DNA of 64,000 nt, taken from the IMG/VR virus record IMGVR_UViG_3300025608_000017, positions 20,154 to 84,153 of that record. One strand, written 5' to 3'. Position 1 is the stretch's first letter. Each line of letters begins with the position of its first letter. Under the pieces are notes generated by a model. The model saw nothing but the letters and a program-made list of their open reading frames with translations. It searched no databases and was not told where the DNA came from. Origin of the DNA: a virus. Taxonomy: Duplodnaviria; Caudoviricetes. Of this stretch, positions 242 through 53,941 are shown one piece after another. The position numbers and the translations under genes are program-made.

Positions 242-805
242 TTACCACTTCCTACATGACCAATAACGGGCCTTTGTTCTCGGTCCTGGATTGTCACAGT
301 TGTGTCTTGCTCTAAAAGAACGTCTACGTGCCGGATTAGACTTTTTAATTTTACTGTCTGGATCGCCAAAGTTAACTTTCTTAACGTTTTTGGTCTTAGG
401 ATCCTTTACATATACTTTGAACTTTTTAACATCGCCGCGCATTGGTTTGCCAAGTTTGACTTTACGACCTTGGTACTCTGCTTCATCCATTTCGTCATCT
501 TCGTTGAACCACATAACACCATAGTTTTCAAAGAACTCATCACCTTCGTATGTTTCTTCTTCTACTTCTGCATCGCCGGCACTAATTTCAATATCAAAAT
601 CTTCGTAGCCTTGCTCAAACATATAGTCTGCTAATTTCTCAGCATACTCGTTTGCTTCGTCTTCTGACAATTCTCTTTGTAGAGGAATTTGAAACACTGT
701 GCCGCCTTGTGCAGTTTCAAAAATTTCTTGTTCTGCGAAAACACTCTCGTCTAACAACTGAGCGCCTTCTTGTTTTTCCATTACTATTCTTACAAAGTGT
801 TCCAT
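242..805 (-). CDS. conserved phage protein with acidic N-terminus and basic C-terminal domain (DUF6321-like)
   Basis: C-terminal KFKVYVKDPKTKNVKKVNFG...RRRSFRARHNC...ARYWSCRKW recalled from large aquatic phages; start moved to MEHF (805), with AAGGT upstream. Confidence 0.7.
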   Translation of the reverse strand: MEHFVRIVMEKQEGAQLLDESVFAEQEIFETAQGGTVFQIPLQRELSEDEANEYAEKLADYMFEQGYEDFDIEISAGDAEVEEETYEGDEFFENYGVMWFNEDDEMDEAEYQGRKVKLGKPMRGDVKKFKVYVKDPKTKNVKKVNFGDPDSKIKKSNPARRRSFRARHNCDNPGPRTKARYWSCRKW

Positions 806-830
806 TGTGCTTACCTTATTCGCTGCCGTA

Positions 831-1544
831 CTAATATTTATCAATATCGCCACAGTATACTAATTTCTCTACACTACGGATACTTGCGCCTGCAAGTAAT
901 GTTACAAGATTTAAAATCTTTTCATCTCTCAAATAGATATAAAGACCATTTAAATAGCCGTATTTTTCCAAACTTTCTAATGCAATTGTACCTATTTTAC
1001 ACTTATCTTTGTTTGCTCGTAACCAATTTGCAAAATCAGTATTAATACGAGTGCTATTAAACCAAACTTTTATTGGTAAATCTGTTGGCTGATCAACAAT
1101 TTGTATTTTAGTTTTAGATTTTAAAATATCTATGTGCTTGGGATTAGGTTCCCAGAACTCAGTAGTTGAGGTACGTAGCTTATGTGCAATATCTAATAAA
1201 AATTTCTTATTATTACTAAACACTGCAATTGAACAATACGGATCTATTCTTAATTTATATTCGTCAAATTTTCTAAGACTAGAATAAACAGTCATAGCAT
1301 CAAGATATTCATTAACATCAATTACAACATCTGATCGAAATTGCCGTTTTAGTAATGGCTGATTTTGTCTGTATTGTTCAGTTAATCTGTCGAGATGTTG
1401 TCTTGCATAACTTAATTTTTCTTTCTTTTGGAGTTCTGAACGAAAGATGCCGTTAAGTTCATTTCGGAATACCAATTTATAAAGGTATTCCGAATAGAAC
1501 AACTTACTTGATTCAGAGTGTTTCAACTGTTTTCTCGTTAACAC
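831..1544 (-). CDS. hypothetical protein
   Basis: 237-aa ORF, co-directional and overlapping the clpA end. Confidence 0.7.
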   Translation of the reverse strand: MLTRKQLKHSESSKLFYSEYLYKLVFRNELNGIFRSELQKKEKLSYARQHLDRLTEQYRQNQPLLKRQFRSDVVIDVNEYLDAMTVYSSLRKFDEYKLRIDPYCSIAVFSNNKKFLLDIAHKLRTSTTEFWEPNPKHIDILKSKTKIQIVDQPTDLPIKVWFNSTRINTDFANWLRANKDKCKIGTIALESLEKYGYLNGLYIYLRDEKILNLVTLLAGASIRSVEKLVYCGDIDKY

Positions 1545-3762
1545 AAGTTAATACCAAACTGTTACTTTTAAAATCAACAGTTACTTTACCACCAGTTTTT
1601 AACTCACCAAACAAGATTTGTTTTGATAGCGGGCGTTTAATATCTTGATCAATTACACGCTGCAATGGACGAGCACCCATTTTAGGATCAAACCCTTTGT
1701 CTACAAGATAATCAAGTGCTTCGTCTGTAACAACAATGTCAATGCCTTTGTCTTTGACCATGTTTTTAAGTTCAACAAGGAACTTTCCAACAATCTTCAT
1801 CATCACAGGCTTGCCAAGACTTGCAAATGTAATCACACCATCAAGTCTGTTGCGGAACTCTGGACTAAAGAATTTCTTAAGAGCTTTGTCTTCGTAGACA
1901 TGTTCGTTATCATCTCCACCAAAGCCAATTGTATTTTTCTCAGCATCCTTTGCACCTAAGTTAGTAGTAAGAATCAATGTACAGTTACGTGCATCTGCTT
2001 CTTTACCGTTTGAACCCGTGATCTTACCATTGTCCATTACTTGCAACAAGATTTGTGAAACATCTGGGTGCGCTTTTTCAATCTCGTCAAGTAGCAATAC
2101 ACAGTTAGGCGACTCTTGTAGCTTGGTAATCAAGATACCTGCGTTTTCTTCGTGACCTACGTAGCCTGGAGGTGAGCCAATTAGCTTGCTTACACTGTGT
2201 TTCTCCATATATTCACTCATATCAATACGTACAAGTTTTACACCCAGTTGTTCGGCAAGTGCTTTGGCTGTTTCTGTTTTACCAGTACCAGTTGGACCCA
2301 TGAACACAAACGCACCTACTGGCTTATCATCTGGCTTGAGACCTGCTTGACTCACAAGAATCTTGTCTACAACGCTTTCAATAGCATCGTCTTGACCGTA
2401 AACAACTTTCTTAATATTATCTTCAAGATTAGCAAGATTACTTGTTTCACGTTCTGCTACTTGCTCTGTAGGCAAGTCTAACATTTTTGCAATTTCAAAC
2501 TGGATTTCTTCTTCGCCGACAACTTTTTCGCCATCGACAACATTATTAACTTTAAATCGACTACATGCTACGTCAATCAAGTCAATAGCTTTATCAGGCA
2601 GTTTTTTATCGCTTTGATATTTAACACTTAGTTTTACAGCAGCATTAATAGCTTCTTGTGTAATAGTAGTTGCGTGATAGTCTTCGTAGTATTTCTTAAT
2701 ACCCTGTAAGATTTCTACAGTGGTTTCTTTACTAGGCTCGCCGATTGTTACACGCTGGAATCGACGCATAAGAGCACGATCCTTTTCAAAGTACTTGCGA
2801 TATTCCTCCCAAGTAGTTGATGCAACAACTTTCAAATCACCTTTAGTAAGTGCAGGCTTTAGCATGTTAGCAAGATCATTTGATCCGCCACTGCCACTTG
2901 CTCCAGCGCCACTCATCATGTGCGCTTCATCGACAAACATAATGGTTTTGCCTTGCTTTGTAAGTCCTTGCAGTACTAGTTTAAAGCGTTCTTCAAAGTC
3001 TCCTCGATACTTAGATCCAGCAAGCATAGCACCAATATCTAGATTGTATACTTTATACTCTTTTAAGAATTCAGGAACAGTTCCTTGTTCGATGTTATAA
3101 GCAAGACCTTCTGCAATAGCAGTTTTACCTACGCCTGGATCACCTACCATTAGTACGTTGTTTTTAGCACGACGACCTAGTGCAAGTGCCAAGCGTTCGA
3201 GTTCTTCGCCGCGACCAATAATAGGATCTACTTTGCCGCGCTTAACTTGATCGTTTAAGTTAGTTGTAAATGCACGGAGTGCTTTACGAGCTTCGCCACT
3301 CATTTCTTCTTCGGTATCAAACTCTTCTTGGAGTTCGTTATTGATGAAATCTGCAAACTTTTGCTTATCTACTTTTCCTTTTTCTAAATAGTAAGCTGAA
3401 ATACTTTTTCTTTCAGAAAGAATAGAAAGTAGAACATCTGTTAGTTCAATGTGTGTCCGTCCGGCAAATAGTGTTTGTGTAAATGCACGATTGAGTACAC
3501 GTTCTACAGTTGCAGTTTTTTTAGGTTTAAATTTAGTTTCATCTATTTTAATATCATCACATTGCGTTTTAAGATGATGTTCAAGATTAGCTTTGATATA
3601 ATCAACATCAGCACCAAACATTGTAATAACATTTACAAAATTTTCTTCACAGAACATTCCGTACAGCAAATGTTCTATTGTTACATACTCATGCTGTAGC
3701 TTTTGTGCATCCTTGATGCTTTTATCAAATACTAATTGCAGCTCTTTGCTTGGTTCTACCAT
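1513..3762 (-). CDS. clpA: ATP-dependent Clp protease ATP-binding subunit ClpA
   Basis: Clp N-domain (HEYVTIEHLL), two AAA+ modules (GDPGVGKT, GPTGTGKT), pore loops GSKYRG and GYVG, IGF docking loop (NTIGF). Confidence 0.95.
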   Translation of the reverse strand: MVEPSKELQLVFDKSIKDAQKLQHEYVTIEHLLYGMFCEENFVNVITMFGADVDYIKANLEHHLKTQCDDIKIDETKFKPKKTATVERVLNRAFTQTLFAGRTHIELTDVLLSILSERKSISAYYLEKGKVDKQKFADFINNELQEEFDTEEEMSGEARKALRAFTTNLNDQVKRGKVDPIIGRGEELERLALALGRRAKNNVLMVGDPGVGKTAIAEGLAYNIEQGTVPEFLKEYKVYNLDIGAMLAGSKYRGDFEERFKLVLQGLTKQGKTIMFVDEAHMMSGAGASGSGGSNDLANMLKPALTKGDLKVVASTTWEEYRKYFEKDRALMRRFQRVTIGEPSKETTVEILQGIKKYYEDYHATTITQEAINAAVKLSVKYQSDKKLPDKAIDLIDVACSRFKVNNVVDGEKVVGEEEIQFEIAKMLDLPTEQVAERETSNLANLEDNIKKVVYGQDDAIESVVDKILVSQAGLKPDDKPVGAFVFMGPTGTGKTETAKALAEQLGVKLVRIDMSEYMEKHSVSKLIGSPPGYVGHEENAGILITKLQESPNCVLLLDEIEKAHPDVSQILLQVMDNGKITGSNGKEADARNCTLILTTNLGAKDAEKNTIGFGGDDNEHVYEDKALKKFFSPEFRNRLDGVITFASLGKPVMMKIVGKFLVELKNMVKDKGIDIVVTDEALDYLVDKGFDPKMGARPLQRVIDQDIKRPLSKQILFGELKTGGKVTVDFKSNSLVLTCVNEKTVETL

Positions 3763-14986: not shown

Positions 14987-15015
14987 ATTATAACGTACAA
15001 ATGCTAAGGAGTCAA
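14987..15015 (-). promoter_or_regulatory. sigma70-type early promoter
   Basis: TTGACT-N17-TATAAT. Confidence 0.8.
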
Positions 15016-51605: not shown

Positions 51606-51640
51606 AAAAAAAGCCCCTAAACAAGTTAATGCTTAGGGGC
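51606..51640 (-). terminator. intrinsic terminator upstream of the six-tRNA array
   Basis: GCCCCTAAGC-ATTAACTT-GTTTAGGGGC followed by T7. Confidence 0.92.
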
Positions 51641-51686
51641 GTATCTTAAATAACTTTTCTACAAAGTCGCGTTAAGACATACCCCT
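51635..51686 (-). promoter_or_regulatory. antiterminator hairpin competing with the terminator
   Basis: AGGGGTATGTCTTAA (51686-51672) pairs 14/15 with TTAAGATACGCCCCT (51649-51635), which includes the terminator 5' arm. Confidence 0.75.
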
Positions 51687-51740
51687 CCTTGACGGTGAGC
51701 ACCAATTCTGTAATGACGATTGTTGTACTGTCTTTAACAC
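51672..51740 (-). CDS. 22-aa attenuator leader peptide (not in the ORF track)
   Basis: AAAGGA-N8-GTG; MLKTVQQSSLQNWCSPSRRGMS; stop lies within the antiterminator 5' strand. Confidence 0.75.
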   Translation of the reverse strand: MLKTVQQSSLQNWCSPSRRGMS

Positions 51741-51766
51741 GTTATAATTCCTTTGTTGTATAACTT

Positions 51767-51795
51767 AATATACTATGTTTATTTATCTTTGTCAA
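51767..51795 (-). promoter_or_regulatory. promoter of the leader/tRNA operon, with embedded late motif
   Basis: TTGACA-N17-TATATT; GATAAATA inside the spacer. Confidence 0.8.
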
Positions 51796-51801
51796 CCACT
51801 A

Positions 51802-51825
51802 TTTGACAATTTAGATAGAATATTA
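51802..51825 (+). repeat. 24-bp exact inverted repeat, copy 1
   Basis: TTTGACAATTTAGATAGAATATTA is the reverse complement of 53223-53246. Confidence 0.95.
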
Positions 51826-52175
51826 AATAAGCAGTTTCTAGTCCTGCTTAGGACCGCCATCATCCTGGGCACCATTTGCTCAGTTGTTTTACAAGGGGAA
51901 CAAAACCCTTGATCCCGCTTTATCAGTGCGGTGCTGTCTGCTATACAGAACAGCGTGATTAATAGTGATAGGGAGGATTGCAGTCTACCTCCAACAACCT
52001 AGTAAGTATTATCATACGTTCGGTTGCGCCTAGTATCAAACAGTTACGTTCGAAATACACATCTTCGTGTCTCCACGCTCATGTGCTGCCACCACAGCTA
52101 CTAGCCAAGTTATCGTCCTTACGAAACGACATTTCCTTGCACTATCTTTTCAAACCCCGTCGGGTTGAAACCTTA
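51826..52175 (-). ncRNA. candidate structured ncRNA(s) of unknown class
   Basis: ~350 nt with no convincing ORF and many consecutive hairpins; lies between tRNA-Leu and the stalk repeat. Confidence 0.55.
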
Positions 52176-52182
52176 AAAACTT

Positions 52183-52267
52183 TGGTGCGCCTGGAGGGAC
52201 TTGAACCCCCACGCCGTAAAGCACTAGAACCTAAATCTAGCGTGTCTACCAATTTCACCACAGACGC
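52183..52267 (-). tRNA. tRNA-Leu(TAG)
   Basis: CTAGA-TTTAGGT-TCTAG, V-arm, A73, CCA. Confidence 0.95.
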
Positions 52268-52319
52268 AGTTGTAAGCTAACCGTTGGCTTACGTGAGCGT
52301 ATTGAGCCGCTACACTTAC

Positions 52320-52395
52320 TGGTGCCGCAACAAGGATTTGAACCCTGGACCTACTGATTACAAATCAGTTGCTCTACCAACTGAGCTATTGCGGC
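52320..52395 (-). tRNA. tRNA-Thr(TGT)
   Basis: ACTGA-TTTGTAA-TCAGT, CCA. Confidence 0.95.
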
Positions 52396-52396
52396 T

Positions 52397-52471
52397 TTAT
52401 CTTCTTACTTTACAGTTAGGACACCAATCTCCGTGTGCTAACTCTGTTTTACATTCACTGCATGTTGTCAT
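52397..52471 (-). CDS. 24-aa zinc-ribbon micropeptide (not in the ORF track)
   Basis: MTTCSECKTELAHGDWCPNCKVRR; ATAAGTA-N4-ATG. Confidence 0.6.
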   Translation of the reverse strand: MTTCSECKTELAHGDWCPNCKVRR

Positions 52472-52478
52472 ACAGTAC

Positions 52479-52700
52479 TTATTCAGGTGTTTCGTCTTCT
52501 TGTTCAATTTCGACTTGCAAAGATCTGATCATTTGTTCTTCTAAGTCTTGTTTGTTGATAGTTCCTGTTTCAAGCAAACGAAGTGCATCTGCTGCGCTTG
52601 ATGCTTGTCCTGAACGTTTTAGATATGCACATGCTGCAACCAAGTCAGTTCGGTTAATGCCTGTGACATCCATTGCTTCCTCAATAAAGACTCTTCCCAT
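52479..52700 (-). CDS. small hypothetical protein inside the tRNA operon
   Basis: 73 aa; AAAGG RBS. Confidence 0.65.
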   Translation of the reverse strand: MGRVFIEEAMDVTGINRTDLVAACAYLKRSGQASSAADALRLLETGTINKQDLEEQMIRSLQVEIEQEDETPE

Positions 52701-52737
52701 TTGTTGTAACCTTTCATTGTTACTTGTTATTGTAGTA

Positions 52738-52811
52738 TGGAGCGGGTAAGGAGAATCGAACTCCTATCATTAGCTTGGAAGGCTAAGGTCTTACCATTAC
52801 ACAATACCCGC
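52738..52811 (-). tRNA. tRNA-Gly(TCC)
   Basis: TTAGC-CTTCCAA-GCTAA, U73, CCA. Confidence 0.95.
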
Positions 52812-52814
52812 AAC

Positions 52815-52902
52815 TGGCAGAGAGACAGGGATTCGAACCCTGGGAACCTTTCGGTTCGGCGGATTAGTAATCCGCTGCCTTCGACCACTCGGCCACCTCT
52901 CC
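52815..52902 (-). tRNA. tRNA-Ser(ACT), unusual A34 anticodon
   Basis: GCGGA-TTACTAA-TCCGC, long V-arm GAACC-GAAA-GGTTC, G73, CCA. Confidence 0.92.
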
Positions 52903-52905
52903 ATT

Positions 52906-52980
52906 TGGCTCCCCAGGATGGGATCGAACCACCGACAAATTGATTAACAGTCAACTGCTCTACCGCTGAGCTACTGGGGA
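52906..52980 (-). tRNA. tRNA-Asn(GTT)
   Basis: GTTGA-CTGTTAA-TCAAT, CCA. Confidence 0.95.
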
Positions 52981-52985
52981 ATAAA

Positions 52986-53193
52986 CTCTACTTACAACTG
53001 CTAACAGTGCAGGAGTCGAACCTGCATGGCGGACCGCCGTCCTATTTGCTACACCGTGTAGTTAATGGGATTCGAACCCAACACCGCAACCCAACGGACC
53101 ACGGACTCGAACCGTGTTTACCTCACCAGTTATCTATTAGCATGTGTAAGTAGAGTTATGAATACATGTTGGTGCATGTATTCCTCTACTTAC
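52986..53193 (-). ncRNA. candidate tRNA-mimic / Y-RNA-like RNA with three T-arms
   Basis: Three GTTCGA(G/A/C)TCC T-arm hairpins inside a ~20-bp terminal stem; no anticodon arm or CCA. Confidence 0.7.
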
Positions 53194-53222
53194 CGTTCCA
53201 TCATCGACTTGCGTCTAAGAAC

Positions 53223-53246
53223 TAATATTCTATCTAAATTGTCAAA
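53223..53246 (-). repeat. 24-bp exact inverted repeat, copy 2 (leader)
   Basis: Complementary to 51802-51825 on the same transcript. Confidence 0.95.
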
Positions 53247-53250
53247 GAGC
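53239..53250 (-). promoter_or_regulatory. rrn-type boxA antitermination element
   Basis: GCTCTTTGACAA versus the E. coli rrn boxA TGCTCTTTAACAA; ~20 nt after the predicted TSS. Confidence 0.65.
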
Positions 53251-53277
53251 GTTGTAAACTTTTTAGCTTACTTAGTT

Positions 53278-53306
53278 ATAATAGCAGTTTATTTAGTTTC
53301 TGTCAA
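53278..53306 (-). promoter_or_regulatory. promoter of the upstream stable-RNA operon, with embedded late motif
   Basis: TTGACA-N17-TATTAT; CTAAATA inside the spacer. Confidence 0.75.
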
Positions 53307-53941
53307 CTGCTATTTTTAATATTTAGATATTTTTTATAAGATTCGTCAGTTGGCTTAAAAACAAAATTAATAATACAACGTTTGTCATTTTTGATAGGAT
53401 TACTACTTGCATGCAGTCTGTTGCTTTGAAACATTAATGCACTTCCTTTTTTAGGAGTATTAGAATGAACCATTGTTAGGTTATCATGCCCGTCTTCGAT
53501 GGCATACTTATCAAATATTCGAGTGTCGCCGTCTGCATCGTTGACATAGTAAACCATACTAAGACACTGGTCTCCCCCATAGTCAATATGAGGCTTATGG
53601 TAACTGTTTTCGTCACCCGTGCCTTTTGTTAGCAAATTTGATTTTATTCGTACAACATGTTCTGTTACAATTCCTGTCTCTTTTTCGAGGAACCATAAAA
53701 TTGGTTGTGCAATTTCTCCAAACAATTGATGAAGTATTCCTTCATCTGGAGTTACAAATGTATTGGTAAATTGATAAGTCTCGTTGATATTTTTATCGTT
53801 GGGATCGAAGTTATTGTCAACATCACTGGTTAGACCATTAAAAACCCATTGGCCGTGATTTATTAAACGTGTTTCAATCCAGTTTGCCATTCCTAAAGGA
53901 ACTAGATTATCAATTTCTTCATAATCAAAACGTTCAATCAT
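53303..53941 (-). CDS. 2OG-Fe(II) oxygenase-like protein
   Basis: PHID (HxD), MVYYVND.DGDT, PKKG..LMF...LHASS, RCIINF. Confidence 0.82.
   Translation of the reverse strand: MIERFDYEEIDNLVPLGMANWIETRLINHGQWVFNGLTSDVDNNFDPNDKNINETYQFTNTFVTPDEGILHQLFGEIAQPILWFLEKETGIVTEHVVRIKSNLLTKGTGDENSYHKPHIDYGGDQCLSMVYYVNDADGDTRIFDKYAIEDGHDNLTMVHSNTPKKGSALMFQSNRLHASSNPIKNDKRCIINFVFKPTDESYKKYLNIKNSS

Follow-up and report, generated by a model that had tools for sequence, protein, structure and literature searches.

In bacterial ribosomal RNA (rrn) operons, boxA nucleates an antitermination complex that resists Rho and holds the 5' nut-like element at the RNA exit, and the helices formed between rRNA leader and trailer are cleaved by RNase III. 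The rrn antitermination complex has been proposed to deliver the leader strand to its complement in the trailer (PMC8632103), and 16S cannot do without a leader-trailer helix longer than 17 bp (PMC10250234). Within boxA, NusB-NusE read positions 1-8 (xGCUCUUU), and position 9 was judged by the authors not to be relevant (PMC3177189). Here we describe a tRNA operon in a 64-kb stretch of DNA (the window) that forms part of the 84-kb IMG/VR viral contig IMGVR_UViG_3300025608_000017, which comes from an uncultured marine T4-like giant phage. With moderate confidence it is read as a stable-RNA operon of the phage whose layout resembles that of a pre-rRNA, with an rrn-style leader and a leader-trailer helix on which host Nus factors and RNase III would act. 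From the comparisons below, the phage probably uses the rRNA transcription and RNase III machinery of its host. What is new is the reuse of rrn-type cis-elements on phage tRNA operons, the elements themselves being known from rRNA operons.

The operon lies on the minus strand, which also carries all the genes around it. Its transcription start was placed from a promoter, P1, with the form TTGACA-17-TATTAT, after which there follow a hairpin (53271-53254), two A's and then CGCTCTTTGACAATTTAGATAGAATATTA. The boxA-like dodecamer GCTCTTTGACAA is found at 53250-53239, and a longer boxA stretch, GCTCTTTGACAATTT (53250-53236), starts approximately 22 nt past the likely transcription start. This agrees with the sequence-only reading of the locus, which had placed a boxA close to that of the E. 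coli rrn leader shortly after the predicted start. The corresponding sequence of E. coli K-12 rrnB, GCTCTTTAACAATTT, is located 129 nt before rrsB and matches the phage boxA at 14 of 15 positions. The sole difference is an A to G change at position 9, with the phage having C-GCUCUUU in positions 1-8; across 53251-53239 (CGCUCUUUGACAA), GCUCUUU is identical to rrnB and makes up seven of the eight bases read by NusB-NusE. There is one occurrence of GYTCTTTRACAA in the window, with 0.11 expected. The exact boxA 17-mer GCTCTTTGACAATTTAG was identified at 119 bacterial genome loci, and in at least 13 of these it lies 76-315 nt before the 16S 5' end (Hyphomicrobiaceae, Pirellulales and candidate phyla radiation bacteria). 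Since it sits in true bacterial 16S leaders, a G at position 9 is natural. A TTGACA inside boxA was also considered as a promoter -35 hexamer, and was rejected by eye for want of an acceptable -10 at 16-18 nt on either strand; promoter prediction did not flag it either.

The hairpin ahead of boxA has a shuffle z-score of -7.6 and is present in both the minimum free energy (MFE) and centroid folds. Hairpins of differing sequence occupy the same position in four related viral contigs (G001-G004, described below) and in seven other viral leaders. RNAalifold gave no consensus for these leader hairpins, those of different length being misaligned, and the hairpin was assessed instead by single-sequence folds and shuffles. 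As the hairpin precedes boxA, the order is the boxB-boxA order of rrn and not that of lambda. The nut element of lambda is likewise an RNA element with a CGCUCUU-type boxA, and the use of host Nus factors, which we infer here, is lambda's as well. In lambda, however, boxA precedes boxB and the N protein is required, whereas in the phage described here the hairpin precedes a full rrn-type 12-mer; with the hairpin before boxA and a long-range arm after it, the lambda-type nut layout is not that of this leader.

This long-range arm is one half of an inverted pair. The 24-mer TTTGACAATTTAGATAGAATATTA is present exactly twice in the window, at 51802-51825 on the plus strand and at 53223-53246 on the minus strand, and no further copy occurs elsewhere in the 84-kb contig. 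In 100 dinucleotide shuffles it was never matched, even at three mismatches, and the exact reverse complementarity that had been claimed for 53246-53223 and 51825-51802 is confirmed. A repeat search lengthened the arms to 27 nt, of which one is mismatched (51799-51825 and 53223-53249; 96% complementarity), the spacing between the arms being 1443 nt. The trailer arm is 78% A+T and, as had also been noted from the sequence, stands just before the next promoter, P2. When the 1477-nt window transcript is folded, the long-range helix forms in the MFE as well as in the centroid structure. The leader arm overlaps the 3' two-thirds of boxA and covers the boxA bases contacted by NusB-NusE, so that helix formation and factor binding should be mutually exclusive, and no second boxA occurs after the helix. 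Just upstream of P1, at 53314-53329, the sequence TATCTAAATATTAAAA repeats the trailer arm and the region upstream of P2 in degenerate form (13/16), and a sequence similar to this one, ATATCTAAAT, lies ahead of a promoter at position 15015 of the window.

The relatives G001-G004 were found by exact-pattern scans of viral contigs followed by whole-record searches. Both arms are kept in all four of these contigs, which share the boxA leader, at spacings of 1422, 3266, 686, and 2387 nt, respectively, and with 3-12 tRNAs enclosed. RNAduplex with 70-nt windows proved too permissive, shuffled leaders scoring similarly, and a contiguous-stem search with controls was used in its place; this gave 24-26 contiguous pairs in the relatives vs. 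at most 17 in the shuffled-leader controls. The proximal 16 nt of the helix are nearly invariant and the distal 8 nt vary and covary. Across the five genomes, three helix columns show compensatory double changes (G-C/C-G, U-A/A-U/C-G, and A-U/U-A), the first of them being G-C in four genomes and C-G in one. Apart from these columns, the arms differ by one C.A mismatch and by three pairs that are U.G on the transcribed strand. Pairing of each leader with its own trailer ranked among the top 4 of 120 arm permutations, a weak test given the few variable columns. The covariation shows that complementarity of the helix is under selection. Joint conservation of the two arms had been set beforehand as a test of the sequence-only reading, and the outcome favors it: both arms are kept and covary in the four relatives that share boxA, and both are lost in two others, L359 and L365.

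For the 728-nt transcript of G003, too, the MFE and the centroid structure both contain the helix and the 5' hairpin. The leader arm of G001 and G003 stops 1-6 nt short of the first tRNA, and in G001 and G002 the trailer arm starts approximately 3 nt after the last, which mirrors the manner in which rRNA stalks abut mature ends. A terminator-like hairpin and a leader ORF (open reading frame) are found after the helix in the window, G001, G002, and G003, in the last of these without a promoter of their own.

A bacterial counterpart was identified with a metagenome scan using CTTTGACAAYTTAGAYA. This pattern was too loose, and its 120 hits were mostly unrelated, but it yielded two truncated relatives, L249 and L276, whose contigs end before the expected trailer, as well as L225, a metagenome contig with a full bacterial rrn operon by Rfam (600-3730, minus strand of the locus). 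The spacer boxA of L225, GTTCTTTGACAATTTAGATAAG (GTTCTTTGACAA), lies 49 nt before 23S, and a 26-bp contiguous 23S leader-trailer helix starts at base 6 of it, a register that the phage shares. The strand of the 16S helix begins 18 nt after the boxA start in Hyphomicrobiaceae. The proposal that the phage operon is built like an rrn operon is thus upheld by the boxA core, the order of hairpin and boxA, the occurrence of the 17-mer in true 16S leaders and the precedent of L225.

Like the rrn leader, that of the phage follows closely on a strong promoter, has its hairpin ahead of boxA and stands at the head of an operon of untranslated stable RNA. It differs in that its boxA heads tRNAs, small RNAs and one small ORF and not rRNA, in having no recognized boxC, and in the G at position 9, which is not the gammaproteobacterial A. 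With the pre-23S and pre-16S stalks it shares a long perfect duplex flanking stable RNA, of 24-27 bp and so above the 17 bp for 16S (PMC10250234), which is maintained by covariation and lies against the ends of the mature RNA. Unlike these stalks, which enclose one rRNA, the phage helix encloses a variable array of 3-12 tRNAs (0.7-3.3 kb), and there is one helix per operon with no second boxA after it. In its early region, phage T7 uses host RNase III on double-stranded RNA for cutting a polycistronic transcript, which the predicted processing here would resemble; the T7 sites, however, are local hairpins between mRNAs, whereas here a long-range 5'-3' helix surrounds tRNAs and is coupled to boxA.

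The features of the operon in the window are as follows, in the order of transcription.

53278..53306, minus strand: promoter P1 (TTGACA, 17-nt spacer, TATTAT; 11/12 match to consensus, with TG ahead of the -10)
53254..53271, minus strand: boxB-like hairpin of 7 bp with an AAAA loop, at the 5' end of the transcript and 3 nt ahead of the C that adjoins boxA
53239..53250, minus strand: rrn-type boxA, GCUCUUUGACAA, with a C at 53251 directly before it
53223..53249, minus strand: leader arm of the long-range helix, overlapping boxA from about its second base and pairing continuously from the fifth
52984..53157, minus strand: structured RNA inside the helix, a stem around three T-arm-like hairpins
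52738..52980, minus strand: tRNA-Asn(GTT), tRNA-Ser(ACT) and tRNA-Gly(TCC)
52479..52700, minus strand: 73-aa ORF within the helix, conserved in G003
52183..52395, minus strand: tRNA-Thr(TGT) and tRNA-Leu(TAG)
51830..52170, minus strand: non-coding RNA tail, comprising a manA-motif match and approximately 130 nt of unassigned structured RNA
51799..51825, minus strand: trailer arm of the long-range helix
51767..51795, minus strand: promoter P2 (TTGACA, 17-nt spacer, TATATT), beginning 4 nt past the trailer arm

The helix encloses five tRNAs, three non-coding RNAs and one small ORF. As no rRNA is among them, it appears to work like a leader-trailer helix and yet is not part of an rrn operon. The structured RNA at 52984-53157 has a 24-nt stem, 88% complementary, which encloses 126 nt; its hairpins are of the GGTTCGAnTCC type and it has no anticodon arm. 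It matches no Rfam family, and a weak match to YrlA (Y RNA-like) was observed near it (E 0.26). The tRNA-Ser (52815-52902, minus strand) has the anticodon ACT, an unmodified A34 being unusual; this anticodon is also found in G003 and G004, the ortholog in G001, G002, and G005 (a further relative, L352) being GCT. No PHROG match was found for the 73-aa ORF. The match to the manA RNA motif (RF01745; 51962-52170, minus strand) has 54.8 bits, just below the gathering score of 55.2, with an E value of 1.7e-12. It stands inside a tRNA operon with no downstream gene to regulate, and is followed by approximately 130 nt of strongly folded RNA (51830-51961, minus strand).

Upstream of the operon, a 212-aa ORF terminates within the -35 hexamer of P1; used as an anchor, this gene gave five distant loci, none of which had tRNAs or boxA. 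Downstream, P2 heads a unit (51613-51795, minus strand) composed of a 22-codon ORF, with a GTG start after AAAGGAAT, and then a GC-rich terminator-like hairpin (51640-51613) with a T-run. It is situated directly before tRNA-Trp and five further tRNAs, which form the second tRNA array, and is conserved in G001, G002, G003, G005, L359, and L365.

On the preferred reading, host RNA polymerase would start at P1 and first transcribe the small hairpin and the rrn-type boxA. NusB-NusE (S10) would then bind boxA, and a host antitermination complex of the Nus/SuhB type would assemble, which would shield the untranslated 1.4-kb transcript from Rho and tether its 5' end at the RNA exit channel. The trailer arm, as it emerges, would pair with the leader arm into a duplex of 24-27 bp, closing a loop that holds the five tRNAs, three non-coding RNAs and the small ORF. 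Cleavage of this duplex by host RNase III would release the array in one piece, ready for RNase P and 3' trimming, and split it from the next transcription unit. A phage-encoded RNase III gene was not found on contigs G000-G003, all four being fragments, and so the enzyme would be that of the host.

The module is not universal among the relatives. Further members of the group were found with the downstream phosphoesterase gene as anchor, among them L359 and L365 (90-91% protein identity), which have the same first tRNAs without boxA and without either arm. In these two, a glycine-zipper ORF with its own promoter lies directly ahead of tRNA-Asn and replaces the leader. A secreted glycine-zipper ORF is located ahead of tRNA-Asn at L359:3850-4290, L365:3650-4098, and L352 (G005):390-850; this module swap removes boxA in all three relatives and the trailer arm in two of the three. 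In total, both arms are present in five genomes, neither in two and the trailer arm only in one (G005, possibly truncated). The trailer arm is retained in G003 and G004, where it is not followed by a promoter, and in L359 and L365 P2 is present but the arm is missing. The arms were also considered as the ends of a transposon or cassette, an idea that was rejected because L359 and L365 carry the same tRNAs without them.

A number of observations weigh against the operon being a pre-rRNA-like unit of this kind. L359 and L365 are close relatives that do without the whole module, which must therefore be dispensable. In G004, more tRNAs directly follow the helix, which is thus not invariably the end of the operon; this is also the contig in which the C.A mismatch is located. 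The covariation comes from three columns in only five helix-bearing genomes, and the permutation test (4/120) is weak. In G005, which has the glycine-zipper ORF, neither boxA nor a leader arm was found in the 3.2 kb left before the contig ends, and the trailer core beside P2 is perfectly conserved. Because G005 keeps this core without a visible leader partner, the trailer sequence might also act in another way, such as by forming the A/T-rich upstream portion of P2. A partial similarity to the trailer arm is also seen in the region upstream of P1. The boxA of the phage departs from the gammaproteobacterial consensus GYTCTTTAANA (PMC5725501) by a G in place of an A. Finally, no boxC-like element was identified: by eye, there being no search model for it, a GU-rich motif after boxA was not evident, and the leader arm occupies that position.

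Other explanations of the helix were weighed against excision by RNase III. It could be real on the RNA and yet serve mainly to strip NusB-NusE from boxA or to clamp the ends against exonucleases. This would suit a leader arm that covers the bases contacted by NusB-NusE, where binding and pairing exclude each other, and it would also suit the terminator-like hairpin and leader ORF that come after the helix in the window and G001-G003, with no second boxA beyond it. However, the helix of G004 is followed directly by tRNA-Trp without an attenuator, and the boxA-overlapping helix of L225 surrounds 23S, for which the textbook function of such a helix is processing by RNase III. The two roles can coexist. 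We regard stripping or clamping as rather unlikely to be the main job. The same coverage of boxA underlies the idea of the helix as an off-switch, by which pairing of the trailer at the exit channel would displace NusB-NusE and leave the polymerase termination-sensitive before the attenuator of the second array. This is unlikely in our estimation; if true, it would constitute a purely RNA-encoded limit on the travel of an antitermination complex and could apply to bacterial rrn operons with a boxA-overlapping 23S helix.

Explanations at the level of DNA fit the data less readily. The arms might be an inverted pair of binding sites for a phage or host protein (an operator pair or DNA loop) or a site of recombination or inversion, with RNA pairing being incidental, and both do lie beside promoters, at approximately +26 of P1 and -40 to -66 of P2. 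A weaker third copy upstream of P1 and the partnerless trailer core of G005 point the same way. A protein site would not, however, need the base-by-base Watson-Crick covariation of the distal 8 nt, and of the four positions that are not Watson-Crick, three are U.G when read on the transcribed strand. Given also that the trailer arm is retained in G003 and G004 despite the lack of a promoter beyond it, that the arms abut tRNA ends and that an inverted arrangement of the segment was not seen in any relative, a role of this type is very unlikely. It is highly improbable that the trailer arm is mainly an A/T-rich, UP-like part of P2 with the leader copy as a neutral duplication. Its composition (78% A+T) and location at the UP-element position of P2 would agree with this, as would G005, with trailer arm and P2 only, and the sequence TATCTAAAT...AAATAG..GTTGACA shared by the P1 and P2 upstream regions. 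But the arm is conserved in G003 and G004, which lack P2, and is missing from L359 and L365, which have it, and a neutral duplication would not maintain an exact 24-nt inverted repeat through compensatory changes in five genomes. The sequence-only reading had further suggested that end-to-end pairing could circularize the RNA, which would proceed by ligation of the ends after cleavage. Beyond the geometry, by which the 5' and 3' ends are brought together, nothing supports this, neither a ligase nor a permuted-RNA signal having been looked for or found; the enclosed tRNAs must be excised individually, making a circle pointless, and the rRNA precedent needs none, so that we give this suggestion almost no credence.

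Leaders of this kind are found more widely among viruses. The sequence CGCTCTTTGACAAYTTAG is present in 36 viral contigs, with 28 unique boxA leaders in all, 25 of which have at least 400 nt of downstream sequence. Within 1 kb, 22 of these 25 head tRNAs on the same strand, tRNAs on the opposite strand being found for none (0/25), and a promoter-like site ends 12-51 nt upstream of boxA in 19 of the 28. A cultured example is Roseobacter phage DSS3P8, in which a boxA-like 17-mer lies 740 nt before tRNAs. Long-range helices above control level were identified only in the family of the window and G001-G004 and in two other viral contigs, L043 and L046. In the sample examined, then, boxA is general on phage tRNA operons and the helix is lineage-specific. 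L043 (12161-12660) and L046 (2193-2960) are unrelated contigs with the same boxA 18-mer, followed by long-range helices of 31 and 27 bp which enclose a single ORF (129 and 205 aa, respectively) instead of tRNAs; no Rfam match was found at either locus. Matches resembling boxA were also observed in non-coding early regions of cultured phages, namely Proteus phage PM135 (L169:2501-2523) and T7-like coliphages (hits H41-H44), one of them, 22/23 identical, being located upstream of the T5-type pre-early genes A2-A1.

With regard to the source phage, the contig has an estimated completeness of 23% and carries T4-like core genes for the topoisomerase II large subunit, DNA ligase and prohead protease. 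Its core proteins share at most 39% identity with those of cultured T4-like phages (topoisomerase protein search), and a search with the DNA of the whole operon against cultured phages gave matches at the level of tRNAs only, with no close cultured relative found.

Genes for tRNAs are widespread in phages, and how their long untranslated transcripts escape Rho and are processed is largely unstudied; in the open-access literature no paper was found that links boxA or leader-trailer helices to phage tRNA operons. This locus, together with approximately 20 other viral contigs, indicates that phages reuse the boxA and, in some lineages, the leader-trailer helix of rRNA operons. It is predicted that host Nus factors and RNase III would be host-dependency factors for the expression of phage tRNAs. 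As a simple sequence marker, boxA could be used to locate the start of phage stable-RNA operons, and its variants may hint at the host clade. These operons, at 0.7-3 kb and with non-essential cargo, would also offer a compact natural model for the delivery of a leader strand to a distant partner by an antitermination complex.

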